Assembly: GCF_004010195.1 (NCBI RefSeq)
Contig: NC_057759.1
Coordinates: 5,609,725-5,673,724 of the forward strand
Reading direction: 5' to 3'
DNA: 64,000 nucleotides
DNA from: Chiloscyllium plagiosum
Taxonomy: Eukaryota
A model generated the notes under the pieces. It made no database searches. It was not told the DNA's origin and saw only the letters and a list, made by a program, of their open reading frames with translations. Shown here in pieces: positions 800 to 62,797 of the stretch (the stretch's first letter is position 1; each line of letters starts with the position of its first letter). Made by a program: the position numbers and the translations under genes.

Positions 800-881
800 C
801 CGCTGTTTGTTTGAAGCAGCTGGTCACACTTGCCTCAGTACCGAGGGAATATTACATTGTCTTGGTCCTTTGAGTACTTGC
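800..881 (-). other. 82-nt exon-like cassette, unit 1 copy b (in-frame TGA in the otherwise open frame)
   Basis: Minus strand reads tcttctgtctttctccAG|GCAAGTAC...AACAGCGG|GTATGT; paralogous to five other 82-nt copies. Confidence 0.55.
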
Positions 882-4479: not shown

Positions 4480-4980
4480 TGTCCCTGTCAGTTTCTTCCC
4501 TGTCAATATGTGAATACAGTTCTTGATCAGTCCTCATCAACTTCTGCTCTATGAATATGGGTGTATTAATCAAACTGTAGCTGTCAGTTTCAGCGATGTG
4601 AATGTGGGAGTACAGTTATCATTCTCTACCTGTCAATTTCTTCTTTGTCAAAGTGAGTGTAATTCAATCTGTACCTTTCAGACTCTGCTGCGTGAATACA
4701 TAAATATAGTTATCAATCTGCAGCTGTCAGTTTCTGCTTGGCGAATACGTTTAAGTAATTGTCAATCTATCCCTGCTATGTGAATGTGAGAGCTGAATTT
4801 TCATCTGTTGCTATCAACTTCTGCTTTGTGAACGTGAGAGTTGAGTGATCAATCTTTCCCTGTCAGGCTCTGTAATTCCAGTGTTTTGAGTGTATTTACT
4901 CATCTTTTCCTGTCAGTTTGTGTGACTGTAGTTTTCAGCCTGTACCCCTCAGATTCTGCTATATGAACATAAGACTGCAG
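4480..4980 (+). repeat. Degenerate 47-49 bp tandem repeat (unit 1 array; continues at about 6170-6430 and 7210-7520)
   Basis: Recurring TATCAATCTGTACCTGTCAGTTTCTGCT.TGTGAA units. Confidence 0.75.
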
Positions 4981-4999
4981 TTATTCATTTAATTTGATC

Positions 5000-5530
5000 A
5001 TTGTTACCACATGTCCGGAGATAAATTGAAAAGTATTGTTTTGTGCACCTTACAGGGAGATCATCTCATCCAAGGTCCATCAAGGTAATAGAACAGAATC
5101 CAGAATACAGTGTTAAAGCTGCAGAGAAGCTGCAGAGATTAGCATCAAAATGTAAGGTCCATTCAAAAGTCTAATAGTAGCGGAGAAGCAGTTGTTGAAT
5201 CTGTTGGATGGTGTATTCAAACTTCTGTATTTTCTACCTGACAGACCAGGGTGGAGGAGCGTATAACTGGGGTCGGATGGGTCTTTCATGTTGTTGGTTG
5301 CTTTCCCGAGACAGGGGGAAGTAGAAATGAAGCCTTTGGATGGAAGGCTGCTTTCAGTGATGGACTGGGCTGAGTCACAACTCTCTGGTAGTTTCTTGTG
5401 GTCTTGGGCAGAACAGGAGCCATACTACACTGTGACACATCCAAATAGGATGCTTTCTGTGGTGCATCTATAAAAATTTGCAAGAGTCTTTATGGACATG
5501 CTGAATTCCCTTAGCCATCCGAGGAAGTCT
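5000..5530 (-). mobile_element. Rex1/Babar-like non-LTR retrotransposon 3' fragment (paralog about 60500-61020, plus)
   Basis: Minus-strand frame gives RxLRxFSMS...FYRCTTESILxGCxTxWYG...QDxKKLxRV, typical of the Rex1-type RT C-terminal region. Confidence 0.65.
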
Positions 5531-5544
5531 GCTTAGTGAATGTC

Positions 5545-6165
5545 ACAGAGTCATAGTCATAGAGATGTACAGCACGGAAACAGACCCTTCGGTCCAACTT
5601 GTCCATGGCAACTAGATATCCCAATCCAATCCAGTCCCACCTGCCAGCACCCAGCCCATATCTCTCCAAATACTTCCTATTCATATACACATCTAGATGC
5701 CTTTTAAATGCTGCAATTGTACCAGCCTCCACCACTTTCTCCTGGCAGGTCATTCCATACAAGTACCACCCTCTGCATGAAAACGTGCCCCTTAGGTCTC
5801 TTTTATATCGTTCCCCTCTCACCCTAAACCTATGCCCTCTAGTTCTAGACTCCCCCACTCCAGGGAAAAGACTTTGTCTATTTATCCTATCCATGTCCCT
5901 CATGATTTTATAAACGTATATAATGTCACCCCCCAGCCTCCAATGCTCCAGGGAAAATTCAACCTCAAGCCAATTCAACCTCTCCTGATAGCTCAAATCC
6001 TCCAAACCTGGCAACATCCTTGTAAATTGTTTCTGAACCCTTTTAAGATTCACAATATCATTCCTATAGGAAGGAGACCAGAATTGCATGCAATATTCCA
6101 ACAGTGGCCTAACCAATGTCCTGTACAGCTGCAAGGTGACCTCCCTACAACTGTACTCAATACTG
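5545..6165 (-). mobile_element. CR1 LINE, 5'-truncated
   Basis: ORF LYRTLVRPLLEYCMQFWSP...; absent from the paralogous arm. Confidence 0.9.
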
Positions 6166-6434
6166 AATGTGTTTGGGTAATTGTCAATCTAAGTCTGCCA
6201 GGTACTGCTATGTGAATATGAGAACTTACTTTTTAACAGTCTGTCAGTTTTTGCTTCATGAATGTTTTGTTTAGTTCAGAACCCTTCCCGGTCAGGCTCT
6301 GTAATGTAAACATGAGTGCATTTATCAATGTTTGCCTGACAGAATTTCTTTTGTGAACATGTGAATGTGGTTATCAATTTTCCCTGGTAGTTTCTGCTCT
6401 GTGAATATGAAAATGTAGTTATTAATCTCTAAAT

Positions 6435-7210
6435 GAAAACCAAAAGAACTGCAGATGCTGGAAATCAGAAACTAAAACAAATTGCTGGAAGATCTCAGCA
6501 GGTCTGACAGAGTCTGTGGACAGAAATTAGAGTTAAAATTTCTAGTCTAGTAACCCTTCCTGTGAAGAGATGGTAGCCAGGAAAATATTAGATTTTCTGC
6601 AGAAGATAGGGTGTGTTGAAGGGTAAGGGAGTAAATGGTGGATGGATATAGAATCCAAAGAGCGGAAAGAACAGTTGAACAGATAAACTAGTGGATCACA
6701 GTCAGACGAGGATGGTAATAGCTATTAATAGAGACTGTTAGTGAGTTTTGGTGTACAATAGAAGACCCTATGATAACACTGTGTGGTGAGAGGGGTTTTG
6801 GGTAATGATACGGGAGAGCTCTAGCTCTAAAGTTGTAGAATTCAATATTGAGTCCAGAAGGCTGTCGAGTTCCCAAGTAGAAAATGAGGTGCTGTTCTTC
6901 CAGCTTGTAGTGAACTTTGCTGGAGCACTGCAGCAAGCCTGAGACAGAGATGTTGGCCAGGGTACAGGGTGGTGTGTTGAAGTGGCATGCAACTAGAAGC
7001 TCAGGGACATTTTTTTTCTGAACAGAATGTAGGTGTTCTGCACAGTGGACACCCAATCTACACTCAGTTTCCCCAGCATAGAGAAGACCAAATGGTAGCT
7101 AGGAAAATGCACATTATCAGTTCTGAGGAGGGGTCACTAGACCTCAAATGTTAAGTCGGATTTCCCTCCATAAATGCTGCCAAACCTGTGGATTTTTCAG
7201 GCAATTTTTG
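6435..7210 (-). mobile_element. Penelope-like element fragment (GIY-YIG C-terminus); paralog about 59490-60210
   Basis: VACHFNT...LEEQHLIFYLGTRQPSGLNIEF, with degenerate hammerhead-like terminal repeats on both sides. Confidence 0.8.
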
Positions 7211-7564
7211 TTATTAATTTCTACCTGTCAGTTTCTGTGCTGCAAACATGAGTGTCATTATCATACTGTAATGTCAATTTACGCAATTTGAAACAGGGAG
7301 TGTTATTAATCTGTTCCAATAAATTTTGATGATGCGAATGGAGCTATCAATCTTCCTCTGAAATGTCTTGCCATGTGCACATGTGTATGATTGACCAATC
7401 TGTCCGTGTTATATTCTGCTCTGTGTAACATAAGAGTTTTGGAATTGATCTATACTTGTCAGTTTCTGCTGTGTGACTGTGAGAGTCAAGTACTCAATCA
7501 GTGCCAACTATTTTCAACTCTTTTATGTATGAAAGTTGCTTAATTCTCTAGCAGCCAATAATAT

Positions 7565-9147: not shown

Positions 9148-10825
9148 TAGTTGGATAATGTCCAGAGTCTATGTTCTTTAGTTTTAGAGTCCATGGATCC
9201 TATAGGCAGGTGAACATGCAACATATTACAGCAGCAAAGCATCTGTGCTTTTCTTCAGAATCAAGGGGAGAAAAGCAATAGACTTTTGTAATTCCTATAG
9301 TGCAGAGTCTAACCAGGAACAGTCTGGTTTTCAGGATGCTATCAGTTTTTGCATTGTGACATATTTTACCAATGAATTAATGATCAGTATTAACCGAATC
9401 AATTTGCAACTAAGTGAACACTTCAACTGCATTGCAGCTGACTTAAGACAACGTTCCTTGTGCCGAGAAGAGAATTGGTCAGTTCTATTTTATTTAATAA
9501 TCTGGAAAGGATCTGGTGCAAGCCATTAGCAGTATTCTTGTTGCTCTCTGGTAGGGCAGGGGAAAACAAAAGGTCTTTTATCTTCCACTATCGGTGAAGA
9601 ATATTTAAACAGTCAAATTCAATTTATTGAACAATCAACTCTTGGTGGTTAAAATAAAGGAGCAGCTTGACAAACCTATTAATTTTAGCTTTATCTTTCT
9701 TTCTGCACTGCTTTAAATAGTAATAATCTGATTCCATTGATCCCTTGATAAAACTATATCCTGATTCTTGATGTTTTTTTTAGGTTAATGAAGAGACAGT
9801 CAAGAGGAATTCTTCAAAGATTTCTTGAAACAAATTTTGAAAGACACAATAATAATAAAAACTTTCTTTTTGGACTGAAAAAAAATCCTACAAAATGATG
9901 AAATGGAGAATGGCATTATGACACAGATGGGGATGACAACTTCTCTGCTCCCATGAAAAATCTATGGAAATGGAATACTCATTGAGTTAACAATTTTAAT
10001 CCCTTTCAATCAGCTGTGTTGTTATAGACTGTTTTTGATCAGTGCAGACTTAATAATTTGAATAGATGTATTCTGTGCTGTAGATCTCTTTGACTAGAGA
10101 TCTGAGGAGAAATCAGTTTGATAAATGTTTTCTGCTAGTTGTGGTGTATATGGATCTTCATCACTGTTAGATGTTGTAATGTGTATTTCAGGATGGTGTA
10201 TGAATTTGCAACTATTGTTAATCAGTCAGTAGCTCTGTGGGAGATAGAATGCTGTGCGCACGCGCAAGCACACTTATGGGGGTGGGATGGAGATGGTGGT
10301 TGTGGGCACTCTCTCGACATCAGGCTTTGGCCCACAGGTTCATTCGGAATTTACATAGTTTAATTGTTGTGTCTTTTCCAGGACAATGATTTATCAAAAA
10401 TGTAATTTTGACTTTCTCAGTTACTGAAAATATCAAAGTTTCTTTCTGCATCTGCACCCAATATCTTCTTCATATATCCTTGTTGTAACAATGTAACAGC
10501 ATGACTTGTTTGTTCACCTTGATTGTAACTTTAAACTTGCCTTTACTACATGTGGATTAATGTAATTCCTGAAAGTATATTTCATATGAGGTTACAGTCT
10601 ATCCCTCTTCTGATGTTGCAAATGATATCTGGCTATGCATAATGGAATTTATTGAAACTGAGCTGTTGTGCATTGGTATAAAGAGAAATTTTAAAAAATA
10701 TTTCATTAGTTGTGCCTGACTCTTGGATTGAATGCATACTTCTGGAAATTGAGCTCAATGTGTATCTGACTCAATCCACTCTGACTGTGGAAAGGATGTT
10801 CTCCAATCTGACAACTGTAACATAC

Positions 10826-10907
10826 CTGCTGGTTGGTAGAAGCAGATGATCATACTTAGCTTTGTACTGAGGAAATATTACATCATCTTGGTCCATCAAA
10901 CATTTGC
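10826..10907 (-). other. 82-nt exon-like cassette, unit 1 copy a
   Basis: ctcttttcttcctctAG|GCAAATGT...ACCAGCAG|GTATGT. Confidence 0.55.
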
Positions 10908-11487
10908 CTAGAGGAAGAAAAGAGTGATATCATCATTTCTGAGTAGAAAGACATCAACTGATCAACGCAACATTCAGGTCATGATCATGATACTTCTGTT
11001 TTTAAACAGAGCAAAGTCTGGTTCCAAAGCAATACTGATCTCCTCCCAATCTTTTGCTGTTTGCGAAATACTGAAACAGTTTACTCAGATGAAAGAAAAC
11101 TAACCAACATATGCACAGCTCCAAAACTAGAATGATTACACAGTTCAATGTTCAGCTCCCAAAAATAAACACGAACTGTTGAAGGAAGAACAGCTGTCAC
11201 TATCACATTTAGATACACTGCCCTTTATTTCCCAATAATTCAAAGTCTATTCGCAACAAACAGCGGGAAACAGAAGCCAAACAATGAATTCCCACCAGTG
11301 TTTAGGGGATTGCAAACCCCAAGAATGTCCCACAGCAGCTTCTTCCCGCTCTGCCTCCCTCAGCAGGCCCACACACAGCCCGAGAAAGGCCTCTCTCTTC
11401 CCCCCAGCCCGCTCACTCCAAGTTCCGGGACCAGTTCCTGCTCCGCTCGGCCTCTTACAAACAGCCCCCGGTTCCCCCTGAACTCAC

Positions 11488-11725
11488 CCCGAATCAATCC
11501 CGGTCTCCCATCCCGATGTGCTGCTGGAAGGAGCCTGCTGTTCCCTCGCTTCCCTGGGCGCTGATCTCTCCATTGCGGTCTGTTTCAAACAAACCTCTTG
11601 CACTCACTGAGTAAATGCCCCTCAATGGCAGCGCTGGGGGAGGGTCTCACGCATGCGCTCCTCTGGACAGGAACAATCAGCTTTGGGGGAGGCGAGCGTG
11701 CGATGAGGCATTGCGCATGCGATGT
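11488..11725 (-). promoter_or_regulatory. CpG-rich promoter with NRF1-type motifs plus putative first exon ending at a GG|GTGAGT donor (unit 1)
   Basis: CGCATGCGC at 11650-11658 and TGCGCATGCG at 11712-11721; donor at 11482-11487; conserved in three copies. Confidence 0.6.
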
Positions 11726-14897: not shown

Positions 14898-16109
14898 TGT
14901 TGTCAGAGACTTTTCCCCCTGAAAGGGAATGCAAACTCAGCAGGCAGGCAGAACTCAGGCAAGTGGAGGTTTATTCATGCAAAACCCAGTTAAAGCAGGG
15001 ACAAAGGATCCTCTCCAGAGACCAGCCCTGAAAGGGAGATCATGACACACACTAAATTTATAACATAAAGCAGTATTTTTATAAATTTGCTGATAACAAT
15101 CACATACAACTTGATCACTTTGATCCTCCCTCATACTTCATAAACCCAATCCTATAAGACACCGAATCAATGACAGGCATTCCTTTAACAGGCCTCGGCT
15201 TCCCATGACCTCATGGCATTGAACAGACACTATAATCACTCATCTTTGCCATCTTTCTATGCAGGAGAAAGTGAGGATTGCAGATGCTGGAGATCAGAGC
15301 TGAAAATGTGTTGCTGGAAAAGCGCAGCAGGTCAGGCAGCATCCAAGGAGCAGGAGAATCGACGTTTTGGGCATGAGCCCTTCTTCAGGAATGAGGAAAG
15401 TGTGTCCAGCAGGCTAAGATAAAAGGTAGGGAGGAGGGACTTGGGGGAGGGGCGTTGGAAATGCAATAGGTGGAAGGAGGTCAAGGTGAGGGTGATAGGC
15501 CGGAGTGGGGGTGGGGGCAGAGAGGTCAGGAAGAAGATTGCAGGTTAGGAAGGCGGGGCTGAGTTCGAGGGATTTGACTGAGACACGGTGGGGGGAGGGG
15601 AAATGAGGAAACTGGAGAAATCTGAGTTCATCCCTTGTGGTTGGAGGGTTCCTAGGCGGACGATGAGGTGCTCTTCCTCCAACCGTCGTGTTGTTATGGT
15701 CTGGCGATGGAGGAGTCCAAGGACCTGCATGTCCTTGGTGGAGTGGGAGGGGGAATTGAAGTTTTGAGCCACAGGGTGGTTGGGTTGGTTGGTCCGGGTG
15801 TCCCAGAGGTGTTCTCTGAAACGTTCCGCAAGTAGGCGGCCTGTCTCCCCAATATAGAGGAGGCCACATCGGGTGCAGTAAATGATGTGCGTGGAGATGC
15901 AGGTGAATTTGTGGCATCTTTCTATGCATCCTCTTCATTCACATTCCAAAGTTCAATGCTAGACTCCTTCAGGCCTCTCAGACTGACTTTATCTGAGTCA
16001 GTTTGAATTCTGTTATTCATTGTATCTCATGTGCTTTCTTTATGAAATTCTGTTTTTCCTCTTATATTTCCCATTGTCCTAATTATGTGTGTTAAAAATA
16101 CCAACTACA
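14898..16109 (-). mobile_element. Possible solo LTR (interrupted by the Penelope insertion), itself inside a CR1
   Basis: Minus strand TGTAG...ACAACA ends, TATAAA at about 15080 and AATAAA at about 14972 in U3-R-U5 order; no TSD found. Confidence 0.35.
15264..15914 (-). mobile_element. Penelope-like element 3' part (GIY-YIG endonuclease) with 14-bp TSD
   Basis: YIGETGR..ERFREH...VAQNFNSPSHS...LEEEHLIVRLGTLQPQGMN; CATCTTTCTATGCA at 15250-15263 and 15915-15928. Confidence 0.9.
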
Positions 16110-19062: not shown

Positions 19063-20399
19063 GTTTACCGTGGCGAATGATTTTAAAATTGCAAGTATTT
19101 TTACAGTGTAGATAAGAGGCTATTCGGCCAATCGATAATTACTGTTGTGCAACCTGGTTATTCCATCTAAAGAATAACATCGTAACTTTGTAATAGTAGG
19201 ATGTAGCAGCAGCATGAGGCCATTCTGCCCGTCCAGCTTGTTCTGCTATTCCATCATGGCTGATATTTCTCAAATTTCCCGTAACCTTCGATCCTTATTT
19301 TCGTGAATACCTGTCCATCTCAGGAATGATATCATTGTGTACTTGGCTGTCCATGCCATAAATGATAATTTGTTTTTATTTATTGTGGAACCCAGACGTT
19401 AATGTTCCATATTAGAGTATTTATATTTCCCAGGCATAACACTCAGCTCAGTTTTGTTACTGGGAGCCTGCAGATGTGTTATGTGGCGCGTTCTTCCCAC
19501 CTGCCCGCTCAGGCAGCGATAACAAATTGTCTTCGGGCAAGTAATAATTTGGATGAAATAAAAATTATTGATAGTGTGGTTCTGTAATTTTACCGGTGTA
19601 CACTATTTTGGTTTTTAAGATGTTTACATCGGCGGTTTTTCGATTGATTCACGGCGGATACAAGTTCGGTTGCTCATCCAGGGAGCGCAGGAAGCGATAG
19701 GGGACATTAGTACAGTATTTCTCTTGGAATTCAGTTAAAGACAAAAGGCAGCGGCAGTGAATTTGCAACTAATGAGATCTTCATTCAGAGATTGCGGAAA
19801 TATAGTAATTAGATGAGTGATGTTCACATCAAATTTTGGTATTGGGTTAGATATTTCAGGAAAAAACCCATCTCCTCATTGACTGACTCCCTTTGCGTTA
19901 ACATGGCTTGTGGTGAGGTGGAGGCAGGAGAGAAAAGGGAAAAAATTGCGCCAAGAGATCAACGGCTTATTTTCAAATTTGAAAATGCCCACCATCACTT
20001 TATCGCATTCCCTCCTTTTACAGCTGAAACATGACTGACTGCTTTTGAACACGCTCTTTCGAGGCCGGCGGAAAAAAAGTGGATATGAACCGAGCAGAGA
20101 ATATATTGCAGAGGTATATGCTACAGAGACAGTGGGAGGATTCAGCTCTTACTGATGCAGTTAAAGGAAATGTGAAGCCAAACCCGATCGGGAACACCCG
20201 TGACACTATTCTAAACTCATAGAACATTGGTCACTCAGGCAGTGACCGTGTAATGAGATATAATGTATGTCCGGACACCGTTAGAATCGTATTCTAGGAA
20301 ATAATCTTCCTCTGCTGCCACAGGCAGTAAAAATATCCAATAAAAATGAGATAGATATGTAGCGATGTTAAGTACTTGTCAGATTCAAGGATGGTCTCT

Positions 20400-20849
<450 letters not shown>

Positions 20850-21913: not shown

Positions 21914-22291
21914 TCACTTGGAGCTGGTGTACTTGGTCACCGCCTTTGTACCCTCCGACACGGCGTGCTTGGCCAGCTCCCCGGGCAGCAGCAGCCGCAC
22001 GGCGGTCTGGATCTCCCGGGAGCTGATGGTGCTGCGCTTGTTGTAATGGGCCAGGCGGGAAGCCTCCCCCGCGATGCGCTCGAAAATATCTTTGACGAAC
22101 GAGTTCATGATGTTCATGGCCTTGGAGGAGATGCCGGTGTCGGGGTGAACCTGCTTCATCACTTTGTAGATGTAGATGGCGTAACTTTCTTTCCTGGACC
22201 GCCTCCTCTTCTTGCCACCCTTCGCTGGCGCCCTCTTCACCGCTTTCTTCGCGCCCTTCTTGGCAACTTGACCCTTCTTTTCCTCAGCCAT
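21914..22291 (-). CDS. H2B: Histone H2B (125 aa, intronless)
   Basis: [27 protein letters not shown]...[16 protein letters not shown]; ATG at 22291. Confidence 0.97.
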
Positions 22292-23339: not shown

Positions 23340-24108
23340 GTGGCTGTGCGGTTTTTGATCTCCCATGTGAGCTTTCAGGAGGAGAATGATTATTACTCTC
23401 TCACAATCTATCCCTGTCAGTTTCTGCTATCTCAACGTGTGAGTGTAGTAATCAGTCTGTATCTGTCAGTGATTACGTTCATACAATTATCACTCAATCC
23501 CACTTTGGCCCAACAAGTCCACACCGACCCACCGGTGATAGATTGTGAGAGAGTAATAATAAGCTTCATCGAAACAGTCTGTAATTTTTGTTCTTAAATT
23601 TCTCCAAAAACAATAAATGCAAGGTTTTCTTCTCAAACATGAAGTATTTCTGTTGATGAGTCTTCGGTTTTCTGTAAAGATACCCAATAGGCCTCAAACT
23701 GTTTGCTCTAGTAGTCTCTGCCTTAAAATTGCTCTTCAAGAACAAAAGGACAAAATAAACCTCTTCAAGCCATTATCTCACCACACAGTGTCCATCTCTC
23801 ACTTCCTGTATTGTGAATATGAAAATTAATTTATCGACCTGTACCTGTCCATTCTGGCCAAATGAACATGTAAATGTTGTCATTAATTGTCCTTGTCAGT
23901 TATTGCAATTCAAGCGTGTGACTGTCATTATAAATCTACCCCCTCAGTTTCTGCTGTGTGAATGTGAGTTTAGTTATCAATCTGTATCTGTCAGTTTCTG
24001 CTAGGTGTAAAAAGTGTGTGTGTCAATATATGGCTGTCAGATTTTGTTCTGTGAATAGTTATCAAAGTGTACCTGTCAGTTCATGTTCTGTGAAATGTGA
24101 GTGTTATC
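23340..24108 (+). repeat. 47-49 bp tandem repeat (resumes at 27118-27690 after the CR1 insertion)
   Basis: Same TATCAATCTGTACCTGTCAGTTTCTG unit. Confidence 0.7.
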
Positions 24109-27117: not shown

Positions 27118-27758
27118 ATTTGTTCCTTTCAGTTTCTTCATTGCGAACATGACAGTGCACTTATTAATCTTTCTAGGACAGTTCCTATTGTGTAAAAGTG
27201 AATGTGTGTTTACCAATCTGTCAGTGTCAATTTCTGACATCTGAATGTAATTTTAGTGATCGTTATGTACTTGTCAGATTTTCTTTTATCTCTGCGAATG
27301 AAAGTGTCAACTTCGGTCTCTACCTGACAGTAGTTGAGTTTGATTATTGATCTGAAATATCAGTTTCTAACTGAATGAAAATTTGAACACAATTATGCAT
27401 CTGTGTCTGATACTTTCTGATATCTGAATATGGAAGTATAGTTGTCAAACCATTCCTATTGGTATGTGCAATGAAAATAAGAGCCTGTGTGTCACTTTCT
27501 GTCACGTGAACATCGGAGTGTCATGAATCTATCCATGTCACTGCCCGCAAGGTGGAGGGGATGTGTGTGATTTTGTGTGTGTAGGTAACTGCCCTGTCAA
27601 TTGTGTGTTGTCATCAATGTCATTTTGCCTGTCTCTGCAATGCCAACGAGTGAACAAACGTATCAATGTTTGCTTGTCAGTTTCTGTTTGTCAAAGGGAC
27701 GTAACTCTCTGGCAGCTACTAATATTCTCTGTGAAGATGTGATTCGTTATGGGATACT

Positions 27759-29531: not shown

Positions 29532-29613
29532 CTGCTGTTTGTTAGAAGCAGCTGGTCATACTTGGCTTTGTACAGAGGGAATATTACATTGTCTTGACCC
29601 TTCCAGTATTTGC
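29532..29613 (-). other. 82-nt exon-like cassette, unit 2 copy b
   Basis: ctgttctgtcttcctccAG|GCAAATAC...AACAGCAG|GTATGT. Confidence 0.55.
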
Positions 29614-30139: not shown

Positions 30140-33100
30140 AACCTGAATGTATTTCTCAATTTGTTCATGTCAGCCTCTGTTTCGTAGATATGTAAATGTA
30201 TTTATCAATTTGTACTGGTCAATTTCTTCTGTATGAATATTTGAATGGAGTTATCCATCTCTACTTGTAAATATCAAAGTACAGCTATTAATATATGTCA
30301 GTCTCCACAATGTGAATGTGTGAGTTTATTGACCATCCTATCCCTGTCGGTTTTTGCTTTGTTATTCCGAGAATGTCAGTAATAACCTGTCCCTGTGAGG
30401 TTGTGGTTGTGAATGCATTTATCAACATATACCTGTCAGTTTCAGTCCATGTGTGTTATCAATCTGTGCCTATCAGATTCTGCTGTGTGAATATGACCGT
30501 CATTTTCAGTCTCTACCTGTCAGTTTTGTGAAATGAGCAAGTGATTGTCAATCAATTTGTTTCTGTCAGTTGTTGCAATGAGAATGTGTGACTGTAGTTA
30601 TCAATCTGGCCATGTCACTTTCTGCTTTGTCCATGCATGTGTGTAGTTATCAATCTGCACCGTTCAGTTTCTGCTCTGTATCTGTGGCTTATTTATCAAT
30701 CTATTGTTGTCTGTCTTTGCAATGTGAAAGTGAATTGATCAACCTTTCCTTATTAGTTTCTATTCTCTGAATCAGAGTGTTTAGTTATTAATCTGTGACT
30801 GTCACCTTTGGATTTGTGAATGTGTAAATGCATTAATCATTCTGTATCTGTCATATTCTACTTTGAGTCTTCCTGAGGGTTTAGTTTTGATATATCCCTG
30901 TCAAAATGTATGTGTATCTGTAAATGTAGTTACCAATCCATACCTGTCAGTTTTTCTGGCTGAATAGGTGTGTGAAATTGTCAGTCTATACCTGACCAAT
31001 TCTGCTGTGTGAATATGAGCAATTCGGAAGCAGCTCTTCCTGTCAGTCTCTGCAATGTGAATATGAGTGGATTTATCAATATTTCCCTGTCAGTTTCTGC
31101 TCGGTGAGACAGTGTTGGGATCAATATATTATGCCCTATGAATATTTGAGCGTCTTTATCAAATTATACCTGTCAGAAAATTTTCTCTGCATATACGGAA
31201 ATTTAACAGTCAGTTTCATCAATGTGAATATGTGAGCATAGGTTTGAATCTATGCCTATCTGTTTCTGCCAAGTCAATATGAGTCATATTGAGATAGAGT
31301 TTTCAATCTCTACCTGACAGATTCTGTGTGAAATAGAGTGTACTTTTCAAACTGTATCTGAGAGTTTATGTTAAGTGAAAGTGTTGTATCAAATTGTAAC
31401 CGTGATTTTCTGTTATGTGACTAGAAGAGTGTAATCTGTCCCTGTCAGTGTCTCCTCCATATATCCGAGGAAGTAATTAAACTATTCCTGCCAGTTTTTG
31501 CTATGTGAATGAGAGTGTACATATCAACCAATATCTGGCAGTACAAGCTATGAGAATGAGAGTGTTGCTATCAATCTGTACCTTTCAGTTCCTGTTATTT
31601 CAACACATGAGTTTAGTTCTCAATCTGTACCAGTCAGTTTCTTTTTGGTGAATATGTGAGTGCGTATATCAATCATTCTTTGTCAATATCTGTGTTGTGA
31701 CTATGTGAATGAGGTTATCAATTTGTAAACCTGTCAGTTTCAACTATGTGCATATGGAAATATTGTTATTAATCTCTACCTGTCAGATTCTCTTCTGTGG
31801 ATATAGTGCAGTTATTGATCTGTCTTTGCTTTATGAACATCCAAATATAGTCATCAATATGGACTTGTCAGTTTCCACTATGTGAATGTGTATGTGTATT
31901 TTCCAACCTATCCCTGTGAGTTTCTGCTGTCTGTATGTGAGAGTGCTGATATGAACATTTAGCTGTAAGTTTCTGGTTTGGTAATGTCCAAATGCCTTTA
32001 TCAAAATGTATATCAGTTTCTGTAATGTAAATGTGTGTGTCCAGTTATCAATTTATGACTGCAACATTCTGCTCTGTGAATATGTAAGTGGTGGTTATCA
32101 TCTGTACCTATTAGTTTCTGCTACATGGATAAATGAGGATAGTTGTCAACCTGTTCCTGTCAGTTTGTGCTGTGAATGTGTCAGTGCAGTTATCAGTCTG
32201 CATCTGTCAATTTCTGCTAGGTGAATGAGAGAGAGTAGTTCCCAATACGTACCTGTGAGATTCTAATCAGATATTTTTGAGTATCGTTATCAAACTGTAC
32301 ATGACAATGTGTTTTCCCCTCTGTGAACATGAAATTGTAGTTATAAATCTTTACCTGTTTGGTTATGGTATGGGAAAGATCTTGTCAGTTTCCGGTATGT
32401 GAGTGTAGTTATCCATCTGTGCCTGTCAGTGTCTGTTATCTGAATGTATGAGTGCAAGTATCAAACTGTGGGTCTCAGTTTCTGCTATGCCAATTAGCGA
32501 GTTTAATTTTTGATCTGTACCTGTCAGTTTCAGATATGTGAATATATGAATGCAGTAATTAATATGAATGTTTCTGCTTGTAAAAATGCAAATATATTCA
32601 TTAAATCATACCTGTCATTTTCTGTAATGTGAATATGAAAATGTAGTTATCAATCTGTAACTGTCATGTTCTGTTCTGTGAATATACAAGTTGTGATCAA
32701 TTTGCACCAGTCAGTTTCTGCGGTGTGAATATTCTTGTATAATGTGGCACATTATACGGCACAGTGGCTCAGTGGTTGGCTCAGTTGCCTCACAGCACCA
32801 GGGACCTGGAGTCGATTTCAGCCTCGGGCGACTGTCTATGTGGAGTTTGCACATTCTACCTGTGTCTGTGTGGGTTTCCTCTGAGTGCCCCGGTTTCCTC
32901 CCACAGTCCAAAGAAGTGGTTAGGTGAATTGGCCATGCTAAATTGCCCATCGTGTTCAGGGATGTGTGGGTTAGGTGCATTAATCAGGGGTAAATGTAGA
33001 GTGATAAGGGAGTGGTTCTGGTTGAGATAATCTTCTGAGGATTGGTGTGGACTTGCTGGGCTGAAGGTCCTGTTTCAAAACTGTATGGCTTCTAATTCTA

Positions 33101-34500
33101 ACCAAAAGACTCTTCCTGAAAGTTTCTGCTAGATGAGTTATTAAATGTAAATAGATTAGTTATTAATCTCTCCCCATCAGTTTCTGAGCTGACAATGTAT
33201 GAATGCATTTATCAATCTGAATCTGCCATTCTTTGTAATATGAATGTGTGAGTACAGTTATTGTTCTATGCCTGGAGACATAGGTGTGGAGGCTAGGAAA
33301 CTTGGGGAAATAAATGTTGACATCTTGAAAACAGCCCACACACCAACAGACGGGGTGCTAGAGATGGTATAAAAAACATAATGGTGTATCAAACTCTCGG
33401 ACCTGATCAAGTATATCCCATGATAGTGTAGGAAGCTGTATTGATAATTTGAATAAATGATATTGTTTTCTTACTTTTTTTAGAATATCTCATAGGGCAG
33501 GTCATTCTATCCCTATCAATTATTGCAATATGAATGTGTGACTGTGGTTATCAAATCTGTACCTGTCAGTTTCTGTGTGAATATATGGGTGCAGTTATCA
33601 ATCTCAGTTTCTGCAATGTGATTGACAGTATAATTATCAGTCTCTCGCTGTCAGCTTCTCCAACACCTATATGTGATTTTAGTTATCAAGCTGAACCTCT
33701 GTTAGTTTCTGTCATATGAATATGTGAGTGTCATCATCAATCTGTCCCAGTCAGTTACTGCAATGTGAATGGGTGAGAGTAGATATCAAGTTGTAACTGT
33801 TTCTGCCATGTGAATATGCATTGAATGTGAGAGTGTAGTTGTCAGTTTTTGCTTGTCAAACTGAGTATTGTTATTGATCTATACTTGTCAGATTCTGCTG
33901 TGTGAAACTGGGAGATTCGTTATCAAAAGTTAGTTTCATATTGCATAAACTAACAAGTGAGTGTTATTCTCAATCTGTTCCTGTCAGTTTCTGCTTCATG
34001 GATATGATACATTTGGTATCAAACTTTGTCAGTAACTACAATGTGAACGGCAGGGTGTATTTACTAATTTGTTCCGATCAGTTTCAGCTCTGTGTATTTA
34101 AGTGTGCTGTTATTAATCTGTAACTGTTAGTGTCTGCCATGTGAATGTGAGTGCATTTATCAATCTTACCCTATCAGCTTTTGTATTGTGAATATGTGAA
34201 AGTACTTTTGTACCTGCCAGTTCTAATATGTAAATATTGTCCTCAATTTCTCCTTGTCAATTTTTGCTATATGTGTTACAGCATGCAGTTAGCAATCTGT
34301 ACATGAATGTTTCTGCAATGTGAACATCAGAATATAGTTACCAATCTGACTGCTCTGTAAATGTAGAAGTACAGTCATCAAACTGTACATGCCAGCTTCT
34401 GCTTTGTGACTCTGAATTTAGGTATTAATCTATGCCTGTCAATTTCAGCCATGTGAATGTGTGAGTGCACTTATCGATCTGTACCTGTCAGTTTCTGCTT
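30140..34500 (+). repeat. Large degenerate tandem array, 47-49 bp unit
   Basis: TCAATC recurs at 31571, 31620 and 31669; approximate consensus TATCAATCTGTACCTGTCAGTTTCTGCTATGTGAATATGTGAGTGTAGT. Confidence 0.9.
32757..33100 (+). mobile_element. HE1-like SINE inserted in the tandem array
   Basis: Diverged copy of 24751-25085. Confidence 0.85.
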
Positions 34501-35858: not shown

Positions 35859-35940
35859 CTGCTGTTTGTTCGAAGCAGCTGGTCACACTTGGCATTGTAC
35901 TGTGGAAATATGACATTGTCTTCATCATTCAAATATTTGC
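35859..35940 (-). other. 82-nt exon-like cassette, unit 2 copy a (acceptor AG>AA, donor GTTTGT)
   Basis: Ungapped alignment to the other five copies. Confidence 0.45.
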
Positions 35941-36657: not shown

Positions 36658-36880
36658 CCCGAATCAATCCCGGTCTCGGAGCCCCCTCTGTGTCCCAGGC
36701 TCCCATCCCGATGTGCTGCTGGAAGGAGCCTGCTGTTCCCTCGCTTCCCTGGGCGCTGATCTCTCCATTGCGGTCTGTTTCAAACAAACCTCTTGCACTC
36801 ACTGAGTAAATGCTCCTCAACGGCAGCGCTGGGGGAGGGCCTCACGCATGCGCTCCTCTGGACAGGAACAGTCAGCGCTG
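36658..36880 (-). promoter_or_regulatory. NRF1-motif promoter and putative first exon (unit 2)
   Basis: Near-identical to 11488-11680; CGCATGCGC 36845-36853; donor 36652-36657. Confidence 0.6.
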
Positions 36881-41162: not shown

Positions 41163-41501
<339 letters not shown>

Positions 41502-42369: not shown

Positions 42370-43015
42370 TCATTTCTTTGTTGCTGTCTTGGTCACTTTC
42401 GCTTTGGGCTTGGCCTTGCCTTTAGCCGGTTTGCTGAGGGGTTTGGGGGCTTTAGGGCCCTTGGCCTTTTTCACCTTCTTCACGGGAGTCCGTTTCTTTG
42501 GCGCTGCTTTGCTCACCGCTTTCTTTGGCGGTGCCGGCTTCTTACCGCTGGCTTTCTTGGCTGGAGATTTCTTGACTGTCGCTTTCTTGGCCTTAGATTT
42601 CTTCGCTGTCACCTTCTTGGCCGGTGATTTCTTCACGGCCGGTTTCTTGGCGGATGTTCCCGCCTTCTTTCCCGCTTTTGCCTTGACTGGATTCTTAGGG
42701 AGTTTGAAGGAGCCGGAGACGCCCTGGCCCTTGACCAGAACAAGGGAGCCGTTCGCCAGGCACCTCCTGATACTCATCTTGATCTGTGCCTTTCGCTTTC
42801 CCACATCGATCCCGCTTCTCTCCAGCCCCTTCTTTACAGCGGACAGAGACGCCCCTTTGCGATCCTTGATATCTCCGACAACCTTCAGAATCAGCTCTCC
42901 CAATCCAGGACCGGGTGTTTTTTTTCCTGGGAGCCGCCGCCTTCTTCTTGGGAGCCTTGGCTTTGGTGGGAGCGGAGGCTGGAGGAGCCGTTTCGGCGGC
43001 TGCACTGTCGCTCAT
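42370..43015 (-). pseudogene. H1: Histone H1 with +1 frameshift in an A8 run (pseudogene or assembly error)
   Basis: N-terminus MSDSAAAETAPPASAPTKAKAPKKK in one frame; globular domain (ELILKVV..RKGASLSAVKK..KGQGVSGSFKL) and K/A/P tail in another; shift at 42918-42925. Confidence 0.85.
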
Positions 43016-43978
43016 GTTGAGAACTCTGCGCTGAATCTCTCTCTGGGTCAGTCTGAACTGGGTCAGCACTGAAGAGTTTGCAAAGGGTTAGGAATCACGT
43101 GCAGAGTGGATAAGGGGGTCAGATTTCACTCCTTTAAGGACCATCGCAGGCAGGAACAGGAGAAGGCCATTCGGCCTCTCAAGCCTTCTCATCCATTCAA
43201 TAGCATCGTGGCTAATGCACCATTCCTCATGCTCACTTTCCTGCACGTAACATGTAACCCTCAATTCCCTGACTGATCAAGAATCTATGTATCTATTTCA
43301 GCCTTAAACCTGCTCCTGTCCCCACACACAGCTCTCTGTGGCAAGGAATTCCAAGGACACTCAACCCTCTGAGAGAAGAAATTCCTCCTCACCTCAATCT
43401 TCAATTTTGAACCAGATGATTGTTTGTTCCTGACAACAGTCACCAACTCCAGATCTGTTTCTGTTTAAAATCGCACTTCAAATCCACCACCTGCCACAGC
43501 AAGATTCACATTCACATCTGCAGGGCAAACCCTGGGGAGCTGAAAACATAAGATTTTGTTTCCCCATTATTTCAGAAACTGAAAGTGAATCTCATCAAAA
43601 TTGAGACCAGAATAAATTGCCCCACCATTGAGCTAAACATTGATGTCGACAGAATCCATACAGTGTGGAAAGAGACCATTCAGCCCATCCAGTCTGTCCC
43701 AAGCCAGTGAAGATAATCCCACCCAGTCCTGACCCTACCCTCTGTAACCCTGCATTACCCATGGCCTATCCCCCTAACCTGCACATCATTGTATCCTACA
43801 GCGTGGAAGCAGGCCTTTTGGCCTATCACATCCATATATTGATCCTCTGGCCCAGACCCACCACCTCTCCAATCCCTGTAACCCTGCATTTCCCATCACT
43901 AAACCTCCCAGCGTGCATAACTGTCACACACTGGGCAACTTAGCAAGGCCAATCCATCTGAACTGCACATCTTTCGAC

Positions 43979-46900: not shown

Positions 46901-47441
46901 CTCAACCAGAGCAGCAATTGAACGCATGCTGTCAATGTGACTGTACATTGTAAGCCTACTATAGAATCATGATTCGGACCTTCAACATAATTTCTAGCTA
47001 TCACCATTGTTAACAGCTAACCCAAGAATGCAACTTTAAAAAAAAGGGTTTAGTGATTTACACATGAAAGAAGTGAAACTATCACTGTATTCTAACAGAT
47101 GAAAGGCTTAACAGACAATCAATTCTTCAATGTATAATTTCAGTTACATCACACTGTAAATTTTTGCTATAAATTATCTCAACCAGAGCAGCAATTGAAC
47201 GCATGCTGTCAATGTGACTGTACATTGTAAGCCTACTATAGAATCAACTGAGCTAACCAACCCCGGCATGGCCAGTGGCAAAAACATTGGGTGGCACAGT
47301 GGCTCAGTGGTTAGCATTGCTGCCTCACAGCACCAGGGACCCAGGAACAATTCCTGCCACGGGTGACTGTTTATTGGGAGTTTGCACATTCTCCCCTTCC
47401 CTGCATGGGTTTTCTCCGGGTGCTCCGGTTTCCTCCCACAG
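43979..47441. repeat. Inverted repeat: arms about 43979-45326 and 45647-47441, spacer about 320 bp
   Basis: Continuous reverse-complement match, e.g. ORFs 44754-44993(+) and 45945-46214(-) are near-identical; arms are made of SINE and CR1 fragments. Confidence 0.92.
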
Positions 47442-53020: not shown

Positions 53021-54678
53021 GCGCATGCGCGATGCTGCCCCTCCCCTAACACTGATTGTTCCTGACCAGAGGAGCGCATGCGTGAGGCCCTCCCCCAGCG
53101 CTGCCATTGAGGAGCATTTAGACAATAGACAACAGGTGCAGGAGTAGGCTATTCAGCCCTTTGAGCCTGCACCGCCATTCAATATAATCATGGCTGATCA
53201 TTCCTAATCAGTATCCTGTTCCTGCCTTATCTCCATAACCCTTGATTCCACTATCTTTGAGAGCTCTTTCTTAAATGAATCCAGAAAGTGGGCCTCCACT
53301 GCCCTCTGGGGCAGAGCATTCCACACAGCCACCACTCTCTGGGTGAAGAAGTTTCTCCTGAGCTCTGTCCTAAATGGTCTAACCCGTATTTTTAAGCTGT
53401 GTCCTCTGGTTCGGCACTCACCCATCAGTGGAAAATGTTTCCTACTGCCAGAATGTCCAATCCTTTCATAATCTTATACGTCCCAGTCAGATCCCCTCTC
53501 AATCTTCGAATCTCAAGGGTATACAAGCCCAGTCGNNNNNNNNNNNNNNNNNNNNNNNNNNNNNNNNNNNNNNNNNNNNNNNNNNNNNNNNNNNNNNNNN
53601 NNNNNNNNNNNNNNNNNNNNNNNNNNNNNNNNNNNNNNNNNNNNNNNNNNNNNNNNNNNNNNNNNNNNNNNNNNNNNNNNNNNNNNNNNNNNNNNNNNNN
53701 NNNNNNNNNNNNNNNNNNNNNNNNNNNNNNNNNNNNNNNNNNNNNNNNNNNNNNNNNNNNNNNNNNNNNNNNNNNNNNNNNNNNNNNNNNNNNNNNNNNN
53801 NNNNNNNNNNNNNNNNNNNNNNNNNNNNNNNNNNNNNNNNNNNNNNNNNNNNNNNNNNNNNNNNNNNNNNNNNNNNNNNNNNNNNNNNNNNNNNNNNNNN
53901 NNNNNNNNNNNNNNNNNNNNNNNNNNNNNNNNNNNNNNNNNNNNNNNNNNNNNNNNNNNNNNNNNNNNNNNNNNNNNNNNNNNNNNNNNNNNNNNNNNNN
54001 NNNNNNNNNNNNNNNNNNNNNNNNNNNNNNNNNNNNNNNNNNNNNNNNNNNNNNNNNNNNNNNNNNNNNNNNNNNNNNNNNNNNNNNNNNNNNNNNNNNN
54101 NNNNNNNNNNNNNNNNNNNNNNNNNNNNNNNNNNNNNNNNNNNNNNNNNNNNNNNNNNNNNNNNNNNNNNNNNNNNNNNNNNNNNNNNNNNNNNNNNNNN
54201 NNNNNNNNNNNNNNNNNNNNNNNNNNNNNNNNNNNNNNNNNNNNNNNNNNNNNNNNGCAGGAACTGATCCTGAATCTATCGAACTCTGGAAAATAATCAC
54301 CAAGGCATCCACGATTTCCCGAGCCACCTCCTTCAGTATCCTGGGATGCAGACCATCAGGCCCCGGAGGCTTATCAACCTTCAGACCTAACAGTCTCTCC
54401 AACACCAAATCCTGGCAAATATAAATTCCCTTAAGTTCAGGTCCTTCAGCCACTGTTACCTCAGGGAGATAGCTTGTGTCTTCCCCAGTGAACACAGATC
54501 TGAAGTACCCATTTAATTCAATTCATTTACTCAGTGAGTACAAGAGGTTTGTTTGAAACAGACCACAATGGAGAGATCAGCGCCCAGGGAAACGAGGGAA
54601 CAGCAGGCTCCTTCCAGCAGCACAACGGGATGGGAGCCTGGGACACAGAGGGGGCTCCGAGACCGGGATTGGTTCGGG
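53021..54678 (+). promoter_or_regulatory. Unit 3 NRF1-motif promoter and first exon, split by a LINE
   Basis: GCGCATGCG at 53021 and 53074; exon resumes at 54530; donor GTGAGT at 54679. Confidence 0.55.
53121..54523 (-). mobile_element. CR1-clade LINE (partly gap) with CATTTA TSD
   Basis: PGPDGLHPRILKE, RLRGDL, FFTQRVVAVWNALP; CATTTA at 53115-53120 and 54524-54529. Confidence 0.88.
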
Positions 54679-55275: not shown

Positions 55276-55357
55276 GCAAATGCCTGATGGACCAAGATAA
55301 TGTTAGACTTCCTCAGTACAAAAACAAGTGTGACCAACTCCTTCTAACAGATAGCAG
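55276..55357 (+). other. 82-nt exon-like cassette, unit 3 copy a (donor GT>CT)
   Basis: tcttgtcttcctccAG|GCAAATGC...ATAGCAG|CTGTGT. Confidence 0.45.
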
Positions 55358-57362: not shown

Positions 57363-60300
57363 TTGCTTTTCTCCCCTTGATTCTGAAGAAAAGCACAGTT
57401 TCTTTTCTGCTGCAATGCGTTGCATTTTCACTTTTCCATGGATCCTATAGGCACTAAAATTAAAGAACATTGGCTGTGGACATTATCGAACTACATGTGC
57501 AGTCCCAGAGATTAACAGATATACAAACACATCCACTTTCACTGACAGGAGCTGACTCCAGTGGCAATGGATAATACCTCATTCATGTCAAATAGCAGAA
57601 GTTTGAACAATGAATTATACTTGCAGTTACTAAAAGTGACATGTTTCAATTTAGATGGCACCGAAGAACTGTGAAACACAATAACCAAGAATAAGGAGCT
57701 CATTGATATCTAGTATCAGAGAGCGAATGAATCCCATTCCCACACTGAGCCTGGTGCTGATGAACACACACTTTCTCCACACTCACTTTCTGGTTGAAGG
57801 CCTGAGTAATGCAGAAGCATTTCTGTATTTTTTTAATGTATAAAACACTGATTTATAAGGCATTAAATTCACCTCCTAATGTGTATCAGATCATGACATG
57901 CAAAATTGGAAACACAAGGAGACATACAGAATATGTCAGTGTGATATAGATCAGTGCGACTCCTTTCAAGTGATACAGATTGGCAGCACAACAGAAAACT
58001 CACTCTACCTCAAGCAGTTAATGGGTGACAGGAAAGAAAATGAAATTTAGGCCCAGGTATTTCCAAATATGGACAACTATAAATTGACTCACCAAACCAT
58101 TAATTGCTTCAGTTAGTGTGAGATGTTATATCTTACAGAACCATTAATTGCTTCAGTTAGTGTGAGATGTTATATCTTACAGTGTCCAGCAGCAACTGAT
58201 AAAGACTATTGTGTACACAAAACGTTAAAAAACAGTCTGAACGCAATAAAATTCAGATTCATGGCAAGGATAACTATTGAACCAACATTCTTCCCTCAAT
58301 CACAAATGGTTAGTGAATATTGATCGAGTTTATCCTACACTCAGACCAAACAAATACAGCTGAACATGGAAAGAGAATGAGATCCACATACTCTATCTGA
58401 CACTGTTGCCCACAGAACAAAACTGACTCTATAGTTATTCAAAGACAGATAACAGCAGAAATAATCTCAGATTAGCATTTACGTAGAGATACTGGCAGTG
58501 AGTGGATAAAGTTCAGAATCCCAACAGTTAGTGGAAACTAGTATGGAGAACAGGTGAAGAACAGAATGTCCCAGTGTGGACACAATGGGCTGAATAGCCA
58601 ATTCTGTGACTCTCATAAATCACAAAATGCAGAAGACATTCAGGCCCAATCACCACATCCGAAAATCTACTATCGCAGAATCAATCACAGTCACAGAGAA
58701 TTCTTCTTTCGAAATTTATTCACGGGATGACGGCATCACTGGCTAGGCTAGCATTTATTGCCCATTCCTAACTGCCCAGGGGGTAGTTATGTGTCAGCCA
58801 CATTGTTGTGGATCTGGAGATACACGTAGGCCAGACCAGTTAAGGATGATAGTTTCCTTCCTTAAAGGACATTAGTGAACCAGTTGGGGTTTTCGACAAA
58901 CAACAATAGATTCGTTGTCATTATTCAACTCTAAGAATATTATTGGTTGCCAGCGAATTACGCAACTTTGATACATAAGAGTCGAAAGTGACTGGTACTG
59001 ATTGAGAGCAGTCACACAGCAGAAACTGACAAGGTTAGATCAATTCCTGAACTCTCAAGTGGACACCACAGAAACTGACAGGCATAGATTGATAGTTGCT
59101 CTCGCATATTCACTCTGCAGAAGCTGAAAGGGAGAACATGATACTTAAACTTACACCCCAAACCACACACACACACACCTCAAACACTGGCAGGTACAGT
59201 CTGATAAATGTATTTGCACAATTGTAAACCAGACGCTGACATATACAGATTCATAACTACATCCTGAGATATACAGAGCAGAATATAACAGGGACAGATT
59301 GGTTAATCACACTCGTGCACATGACAGGACATTTCAGAGGAAAACTGATAACTACATTCTCATTCACAAGTAGAAACTGACAGGAACAAATTGATAAAAT
59401 TCACTGTTTCAAATCACTTAAATTGACATGTACAGCTTGAAAATGACACACATTCACAGGAGAAACTGACAGGTAGAGATTAATAACAAGAGAAATCACA
59501 GTTACATTTGAGGTCTGGTGACCCTTCCTCAGAACTGATTGTGTGCATTTTCCTAGCTGCTATGTGGTCTTCTCTATTCTGAGGAAACTGAGTGTAGATT
59601 GGGTGTCCACTTTGCCGTAAACTTACATTCTGTCCAGAAAAAAAGTACCTGAGCTTCCAGTTGCCTGCCACTTCAACACACCATCCTGTTCCCTGGCCAA
59701 CATCTCTGTCTTAGGCTTGCTGCAGTGCTCCAGTGAAGCTCAGTGTAAGCTGGAAGAACAGCACCTCATTTTCTGCTTGGGAACTTGACAGCCTTCTGGA
59801 CTCAATATTGTGTTCTACAACTTTAGGGCAACAGCTCTCCCGTGTCATTACCTGAAAGCTCACACACCAGCCCTTGTTATCACTTAGTATGCTATTATAC
59901 ACCAACAGTCATTGACAATCTCTATTAACAGCTATTCATCCTCCTCATCTGACCGTGACCCACTCGTTTGTCTGTACAACTGTTCTCCCCTCTCTTTGGA
60001 TTCTATCTCCATATGTCATTTACTCCTTACCCTTCAACACACACTGTCTTCTGCAGAAAAGGAATAATTTCCTGGCTACAGTCCTCAGGAAGGGTTATTG
60101 TACTGGAAATTTTAACTCTGATCAAACTCCACAGACTCTGTCAGACCTGCTAAGCTTTTCCAGCAATTTATTTTTGTATTTGATTTGCAGCACTTGCAGT
60201 TCTTTTGATTTTTATTTAGAGATCAATAACTATATTATCATATTCACAGAGCAGAAACTGCCAGGGATAATTGGTAACCACATTCACATGCTCACAAAAG

Positions 60301-61517
60301 AAATTCTGTCATGCAAACATTGATAAATACACTCAGATTTACATTACAGAGCCTAACTGGGAAGGATTCTTAACTAAACTTAACTAAACCTTCACAAAGC
60401 AAAATCTGACAGGGACTGTTAGGAACTAAATTCTCACTTTCACATAGCAGAAACTGGCAGGTTTAGATTGACAATTACCTAAACACATTCACCAAGCAGA
60501 TTTCTTCAGGAGGCTAAGGAAATTCAGCATGTCCACAAAGACACTTCCAACTTTTTATAGATGCACCACAGAAAGCATCGTATCTGGATGTATCACAGCA
60601 TGGTATGGCTACTGTGCTGCCCAAGACTGCAAGGAACTACAGAGAGTTTGAACACAGCTCTGTCCATCACAGAAATCAACCATCCAATGACCACATTTAC
60701 ACCTTCCCCCATCTTGGAAAAGTAGCCGACATAATCAAAAACCCATCCGACCCCGGTTATATTTTCCTCCACCCTCTTCTGTCAGGGAGAAGTTTGAATA
60801 CACCATCCAACTGGTTCAAGAACAGCTTCCCACCTGTCATCAGACTTTTGAATGGACCACTCAAATTTGAATGTTCATGTCTCTCTTTCTGCAGCATTAA
60901 CACTGTATTCCGAATTCTGTTCTATTACCCTGATGCACTTTGTATGATATGATCTGCCTGTAAAGCGCACAGAACATACTTTTCATTACAACTCGTGCAT
61001 GTGACAATAACAAATCAGATCAAGTCAAATAGCCTCATTCACAAAGCAGAATCTGAGAGTTGATAACTACAGTCACACAAACTGACAGGAAAAGATGAAT
61101 AAATACACTCAAACACTGACATTACAGAGCCTGACAAGGAAAGATTGAAAACTGAGCTCTCACATTCACAAGACTGAAACTGATAGTGACAGATGAGAAC
61201 TTAGCTCACACATCCACATTGCAGGGATAGATTGACAATTACACAAAACTATTCGGCGAGCAGAAACTGACAGCTACAGATTGGTAACTATATTTAGTCT
61301 GAAAGGTACAGATTGACAATTACACTCTTTCTTTGACAAGGCAGGAACCGACAGGTAGAGAATAATAACTGTACTCCCACATTCACATCGCTGAAACTGA
61401 TGGATTGATTGATACACCCATATTCACAGAGCATAATCTGATGTGTACTGATTATTAACTGTATTTGCATACTGACAGGGTCAGATTCATACCTGCACTC
61501 TCACATTAACATATTAG

Positions 61518-62715: not shown

Positions 62716-62797
62716 ACAAGTACTTGAAGGACCAAGAGAATGTAATATTATCTCGGTATGAAGCCAAGTGTGATCAGTTCCTTCTGACAAACAGCAG
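62716..62797 (+). other. 82-nt exon-like cassette, unit 3 copy b
   Basis: tctcttctctcttccttcAG|ACAAGTAC...AACAGCAG|GTAAGT (consensus donor). Confidence 0.55.

Follow-up and report, generated by a model that had tools for sequence, protein, structure and literature searches.

A family of 82-nucleotide exons in duplicated units of a carpet shark histone cluster is spliced and shows a modest frame-specific signal of constraint

Introduction

Replication-dependent histone genes lack introns and carry a terminal stem-loop, and primate histone cluster 2 contains an inverted repeat with the pseudogenes H2BC19P and H2BC20P (PMC9526256). Large clusters of H1, H2A, H2B and H3 genes are reported from a stingray in an elasmobranch genome preprint (10.1101/2025.06.08.657570). 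The locus described here, in the carpet shark Chiloscyllium plagiosum, resembles primate cluster 2, as PMC9526256 presents it, in that direct and inverted duplication within a replication-dependent histone cluster was followed by independent decay. Unlike in the primate cluster, the duplicated element is an intron-containing unit rather than a histone gene, and no parent protein gene was found for it.

Multi-exon lncRNAs offer a second comparison. As far as the available part of PMC4338330 describes them, they share with the shark family a spliced, polyadenylated isoform, exons that are more conserved than introns and the lack of a conserved long ORF; the shark family differs in being multi-copy, in its tandem duplicates of one exon and in a frame-specific omega (dN/dS) below 1.

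In the databases, the same exon peptide occurs in gene models of C. plagiosum (XP_043539785.1, XP_043539783.1 and XP_043539670.1, 'late histone H2B.L4-like'), Chiloscyllium punctatum (XP_072422816.1 and chiPu hypothetical proteins) and Stegostoma tigrinum (XP_059498353.1 and relatives). Several of these models have the same first exon and some contain two or three exon copies. All are automatic predictions, named as uncharacterized, hypothetical or H2B-like, and they disagree on everything outside the exon. No description of the exon family was found in a search of the open-access literature.

In how it works, the shark family resembles a multi-exon lncRNA, or a transcribed fragment of a gene, whose copies were spread by segmental duplication among histone genes. 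New here are the layout of two exon copies per unit, the frame-specific omega, and an in-frame ATG together with an overlapping upstream ORF.

Results

Histone genes of the window

The window, meaning the whole stretch of 64,000 nucleotides that was analysed, is a replication-dependent histone cluster in which H2A, H2B, H3 and H1 lie on the minus strand among LINE and SINE fragments (Table 1). Stem-loops follow H2B, H3 and H1 at their 3' ends. For H2A, no Rfam histone stem-loop was found up to an E value of 1 (20300-20420, minus strand), and this gene may be a damaged or polyadenylated copy. All four genes share one strand between 20403 and 43011, with H2A and H2B in tandem and not divergent; an H4 motif was not found in the window with three short patterns. 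Nested young inverted duplications (44381-46592 and 43978-47441; 93-96% identity, up to 950 bp) adjoin H1. On the minus strand, a fragment at 15548-15934 resembles a Penelope-type element, with a weak GIY-YIG match (E 0.0016), and a second fragment at 57041-57427 is one that we take to resemble the same type of element.

Table 1. Positions of the exon copies, duplicated units and histone genes in the window.
Feature	Position	Strand	Remarks
Exon copy c1, second copy of unit 1	800..881	-	Splice signals intact; TGA at codon 15 of the proposed frame
~47-nt repeat array, unit 1	4484..7468	-	Homologous to the array of unit 2; orientation that of the unit
Candidate next exon of unit 1, 5' end only	9500..9547	-	Predicted; after pyrimidine tract and AG; resembles X12 contig continuations
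Exon copy c2, first copy of unit 1	10826..10907	-	Splice signals intact; peptide 26/26 identical to P0003 residues 22-47
Intron 1 of unit 1	10908..11487	-	580 nt, GT-AG, spliced in reads; AATAAA at 11229-11224
First exon of unit 1	11488..11665	-	Start ~11626-11665; donor GG/GTGAGT (slash, exon end); contig ends 11661/11664; 25-nt deletion
Histone H2A ORF	20403..20849	-	
Histone H2B gene, downstream of unit 2	21917..22290	-	3' stem-loop 21836-21881
Exon copy c3, second copy of unit 2	29532..29613	-	Splice signals intact; frame open
~47-nt degenerate repeat array, unit 2	30146..34497	-	Between the two exon copies
Exon copy c4, first copy of unit 2	35859..35940	-	Acceptor AG lost (CAA); 7-nt gap in pyrimidine tract; weak donor GTTTGT
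First exon of unit 2	36658..36860	-	34-codon ORF from ATG at 36768 overlaps a second ATG (36706) that shares the frame of the 82-nt exon
Histone H3 ORF	41166..41501	-	5' end at N gap
Histone H1 ORF	42373..43011	-	
Promoter and 5' part of first exon, unit 3	53021..53120	+	Full GCGCATGCGC motif at 53021
First exon of unit 3, 3' part	54524..54678	+	In-frame ATG 54630; upstream ATG 54568
Exon copy c5, first copy of unit 3	55276..55357	+	Donor GT lost (CTGTGT)
~47-nt repeat array, unit 3	59068..61477	+	Homologous to the array of unit 2; orientation that of the unit
Exon copy c6, second copy of unit 3	62716..62797	+	Splice signals intact; frame open

Six gap-free exon copies

Six paralogous cassettes of 82 nt, four on the minus and two on the plus strand, had been proposed in a preliminary description made from the letters alone, and all six were located. 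They align without a gap, at pairwise identities of 73-85% (mean 78%). Both a YAG acceptor, with 17-18 pyrimidines in the preceding 20 letters, and a GTA(T/A)GT donor are present in four of the six, as had been claimed, and when both strands of the whole window were scanned for an acceptor and donor spaced 82 nt apart, exactly these four sites were returned. The p-distance is 0.22 in the exon versus 0.25-0.40 in the flanks, with the exon lower in all 15 copy pairs. The proposed difference in indels was likewise borne out among the six window copies, where no gap event falls in the 82-nt exon versus 25 in 320 flank columns (Poisson P ~0.002, uncorrected for the post hoc choice of the block). 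The gap-free block is longer than the exon; it comprises 124 columns and extends 38 nt past the donor into the downstream intron.

These 38 nt (10787-10825 and homologues) are ~75% identical across all six copies and carry no coding signal; a splicing element of the intron, or a small RNA not yet described, may lie here. Rfam gave no match at any of the six cassettes, either at the gathering score or up to an E value of 1; snoRNA, miRNA and tRNA were considered and none was found at the cassettes, nor was a known small RNA present in the conserved intron flank. A division into two ancient exon subfamilies, corresponding to first and second copies, was also rejected, as the tree supports only c2 with c5 (100; other nodes 81 and 49), and 'first' and 'second' are used here as positional labels only.

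Three duplicated units

By self-comparison and exon searches, the six copies could be assigned to three duplicated units, each consisting of a common first exon, an 82-nt copy (c2, c4 or c5), a degenerate array of ~47-nt repeats and a second 82-nt copy (c1, c3 or c6). Units 1 and 3 are inverted duplicates of each other over ~7.5 kb. Further ~47-nt repeat stretches occur at 23405-24094 and 27191-27448 (minus strand), and the arrays follow the orientation of the transcription unit or of the histone genes. A CTGACAG-GTA motif, similar to splice signals placed end to end, is found in many of the repeat units. A mucin-like coding exon within the repeat was dismissed, there being no long Thr/Ser-rich ORF in it.

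Each unit bears its own damage: the deletion in exon 1 and the stop in c1 in unit 1, the lost acceptor of c4 in unit 2, and an insertion in exon 1 together with the lost donor of c5 in unit 3. The insertion, of ~1.4 kb, splits the first exon of unit 3 and is flanked by a 6-bp duplication at 53115-53120 and 54524-54529. Units 2 and 3 have changes in the acceptor that corresponds by homology to the one preceding the candidate exon at 9547. At the level of sequence, the comparison of the units demonstrates duplication of whole units, followed by independent loss of splice sites, deletion and insertion in exon 1, and acquisition of stops.

The first exons are 95-97% identical between units, versus 75-86% for the adjacent introns and 82-nt exons, which points to strong constraint on, or recent gene conversion of, the start region. 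The NRF1 consensus is GCGCATGCGC (PMC10810270), and NRF1-like sites matching 9 of 10 letters, as motif matches only, lie at 11658 and 11720 in the start region of unit 1. A CpG-island promoter was rejected, since the first exons failed a 500-bp CpG scan that only the histone genes passed.

RNA evidence for splicing

Seven public runs were aligned to unit 1, of which X14 and X15 are on record as RNA, whereas X1, X10, X12, X2 and X3 are not so recorded; X15 gave no aligned reads. The joint between the exon-1 donor (11488) and the 82-nt acceptor (10907) was observed in six of the seven runs and under three organism labels (A, B and C), and therefore the exon family is spliced. The joint appears as CT..AC on the plus strand, across the 580-nt GT-AG intron. 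Among raw poly(A) reads of X14 it was found in 2 of 3096 at 90% likeness and in 3 of 147 (2 starts) at 82%; it is also present in contigs of X1, X10 and X12 (organism A), X2 (organism B) and X3 (organism C). Reads at the joint are few, and its short side spans only 21-28 letters. First mates of X14 fall almost all on the plus strand, as expected for minus-strand RNA.

A direct joint from exon 1 to a c1-type acceptor could also be seen, in two X14 reads, one X1 contig and one X10 contig. In one X3 contig, the end of another copy is joined straight to the 82-nt acceptor, that is, by copy-to-copy splicing. On the donor side, where joints rest on contigs only, two X12 contigs have loose ends at 10826 and continue into letters resembling those from 9547 downwards.

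The transcript starts near 11626-11665. Deep contigs end at 11661-11664, and seven reads end at 11626 in adapter-like letters, presumably those of a template-switch adapter. A poly(A) stretch is seen in eight reads at ~11208, 15 nt downstream of the AATAAA of intron 1, which indicates a short unspliced isoform that ends in intron 1. Exon 1 and the 82-nt exon together exceed 220 nt and, being spliced in a poly(A) library, fit a spliced polyadenylated RNA of more than 200 nt.

At certain fixed positions, among them 833 and 10858, the letters of the reads are not those of c1 and c2, so that splicing is established for the family and is not assignable to these six loci. At 833, all 28 plus-mate reads differ from c1 and hence come from paralogs or another allele. 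Transcription, splicing of exon 1 to the 82-nt exon, joining of copy to copy and the polyadenylated intron-1 isoform are thus observed at the level of the family. At that level the cassette is a real exon, as had been proposed: joints fall exactly on the predicted acceptor, in the six runs named above, and loose ends fall on the predicted donor.

Codon tests in the proposed frame

The preliminary description had proposed one reading frame through the cassette, entered in phase 1. For codon tests of this frame, the six window copies (26 codons) were analysed with a 64-state codon model fitted by maximum likelihood (ML) and with a counting ratio. Omega was 0.40 in the proposed frame (LR 8.54, p=0.003; grid values of 0.3-0.6 lie within the interval) and 0.74-2.32 in the other five frames. 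The counting ratio was 0.54, a value reached in frame by 0.7-1.0% of 1500 neutral simulations (p 0.007-0.010); when the best of six frames was taken in the simulations, p was 0.027-0.033, with and without CpG hypermutability. Just outside the exon the ratio in the same frame was 1.26 upstream and 1.14 downstream. Pairwise pS (0.15-0.45) is near the flank divergence, and pN is 0.14-0.23.

Stops occur in one of six copies in the proposed frame and in all six in each of the other two sense frames. The count of five open copies given earlier was correct, but openness of this degree is itself no evidence, being expected in 32-38% of neutral simulations. Of the many third-position changes noted, an excess is present (21 of 49 changes) and is weak when taken alone (p=0.09). 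A longer relic ORF reaching into the intron was considered and set aside; the next 12 codons are open in five of six copies, but the ratio there is the 1.14 given above.

The 82-nt exon thus shows a frame-specific signal of protein-type constraint that is real but modest. Omega below 1 with pS near the flank divergence fits selection on protein, which may still act in some copies. The suggestion that the exon was 'possibly once coding' finds moderate support, with dN/dS across the six window copies at ~0.4-0.5 (0.40 by ML, 0.54 by counting) and not near 1, only in the proposed frame and only inside the exon.

Start codons and frame continuity

Two ATGs are present in exon 1, and each has a purine at -3 and a G at +4. 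In units 2 and 3, reading from the second leads into the 82-nt exon in phase 1, and the frame from this ATG to the exon end is open with c3 and c6. In unit 1 the 25-nt deletion leaves no ATG in the proposed frame. Entry in phase 1, as proposed, is therefore matched by the ATG and donor of exon 1 in two of three units and lost by deletion in the third. The first ATG, in an equally good context, opens an ORF that overlaps the second, in-frame one.

A TGA at exon codon 2 was read by hand in two X14 reads and one X3 contig joined to exon 1, and in one X2 contig; an early stop is therefore tolerated in spliced copies of three organism labels. As 82 is not a multiple of three, copy-to-copy splicing puts the next copy into a frame with stops in all six copies. 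Downstream of the exon no conservation of a reading frame was found, and the gene models diverge right after it. These observations speak against present-day coding by the 82-nt exon family.

Related gene models

Protein searches (5.8 billion sequences; 1.84 billion representatives) returned 19 entries, of which 18 are Chiloscyllium or Stegostoma models. The other, P0009, an 867-residue repeat protein, is unrelated and matches only the intron-derived part of the profile. Every family match that bears a name is a bamboo-shark or zebra-shark gene model. The peptide had gone unrecognised in the preliminary description, and databases of known families did not place it either: with a 26-residue profile, which has limited reach, Pfam gave no family to an E value of 1, the best PDB match was at E 1.6 and there was no usable Atlas match.

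In the gene models the exon peptide (26-27 residues) is 67-100% identical to the nearest window copy, and the c2 peptide agrees at 26 of 26 residues with a stretch of a C. plagiosum model. When 13 shark models besides P0005 were aligned, the exon peptide was the only common part, except in three models that read on into the intron. Two or three exon copies in successive frames are included in P0002, P0005 and P0018; the last, an automatic prediction, reads three successive copies in three different frames, and P0005 stays in frame only by way of an acceptor 26 nt upstream, whose AG is present in four of the six window copies. A frame-shifted second copy in P0004 (tblastn E 0.10) was absent on recheck and was not counted.

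Outside the exon, the exon-1 ATG in matching phase is kept in the C. punctatum models P0005, P0012 and P0019. The tails of P0004 and P0015 match LINE antisense sequence, and the zebra-shark models P0015-P0017 combine a different N-terminus with a LINE-antisense tail. No intact parent gene was found in searches among longer proteins, which gave four and three models with unrelated tails and are weak evidence on this point.

The H2B fusion model

One RefSeq model, P0003, joins sequence of the exon-1 region, the c2 peptide and H2B in one frame. Read at face value, and with unit 2 lying upstream of the H2B gene of the window in the same orientation, it would have the unit serve as an alternative promoter and leader located upstream of H2B, its spliced mRNA encoding the histone with an N-terminal extension. 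We consider this very improbable. The splice acceptor that P0003 requires is the AG at the end of a CCAAT box (22401), and the residues gained from there are read across the octamer-like and TATA elements of the H2B promoter. In the intact H2B of the window the same frame meets a stop before the H2B start codon, and it is open only in P0003. Fusion to H2B is seen in only one of the 18 family models. The H2B N-terminus of P0003 is degraded, and the model may therefore rescue a damaged H2B copy; P0003 is probably an annotation rescue of this kind.

Discussion

Taken together, the cassettes are somewhat more probably than otherwise an internal exon of a spliced shark transcript family that was duplicated with its first exon into three units, whose RNA is likely mostly non-coding now and retains remnants of a small ORF on which protein-type selection is likely to have acted in the past. 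The ancestral unit would have had an ORF of ~44 codons, running from the second ATG of exon 1 through the 82-nt exon. Amplification with the histone cluster would then have relaxed selection, and copies would have come to splice into whatever lies downstream, be it other copies, LINE fragments or the H2B promoter region. The products would be short or frame-shifted ORFs, presumably for the most part untranslated or degraded by nonsense-mediated decay. As no parent gene was found, the family is not classed as a pseudogene of a known gene, and because two defining tests of coding came out negative, it is not classed as a protein-coding gene.

How far coding persists is the main point on which explanations diverge. 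Some copies might still encode a functional carpet-shark micropeptide, with an N-terminal core of ~44 residues and variable tails, whose ATG ribosomes would find by leaky scanning beyond the upstream ORF; the broken copies would be the debris of birth and death. That omega of 0.40-0.54 is confined to the proposed frame and to the exon speaks for this, as do the donor phase of exon 1, which matches the predicted phase 1, and the open frames with c3 and c6 in units 2 and 3; the RefSeq model P0005 of C. punctatum has exactly this start, and P0005 and P0018 contain a two-residue gap that is in frame. Yet the C-terminus is not conserved, stop-bearing copies are spliced under three organism labels, the upstream ORF overlaps the in-frame ATG, and P0015-P0017 of the zebra shark have the other N-terminus and the LINE-antisense tail. 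Named matches are moreover limited to Chiloscyllium and Stegostoma, and Atlas recognition, at 1271, is below the 2300 typical of known families. We therefore hold persisting function in some copies to be possible but doubtful. The bolder proposal, that carpet-shark-specific translated micropeptides were co-amplified with the histone genes, with a core of ~44 residues under purifying selection and tails supplied by alternative splicing through frame-shifting arrays of the 82-nt exon, is speculative and, in our judgement, unlikely.

At the other extreme, the exon may never have coded at all and would be an ordinary multi-exon lncRNA or leader exon under splicing constraint, its low omega owed to splice-enhancer motifs or to chance in 26 codons. 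The corrected p of only ~0.03, the gap-free conserved block that reaches 38 nt into the intron and the open frame, expected neutrally about one-third of the time, are all compatible with this, and human lncRNA exons retain splice enhancers under purifying selection (PMC4338330). Against it, the constraint tracks one sense frame and ends at the exon borders, and synonymous sites are near flank divergence, a pattern that makes an exclusively non-coding history quite improbable. We know of no reason for enhancer selection to track a reading frame. An exon family now mostly non-coding, with the trace of a formerly selected ORF, is accordingly the account that we prefer.

For this shark, the finding means that the apparently empty spacers of the histone cluster are filled by an expressed, amplified gene family, and that the inconsistent 'uncharacterized' and 'H2B-like' models in the databases are explained as one 82-nt exon joined to different neighbours. 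Were the exon translated, the copies would encode micropeptides specific to this lineage, with selection that can be measured; otherwise the family would clearly illustrate how a small ORF decays to leave a multi-copy lncRNA.
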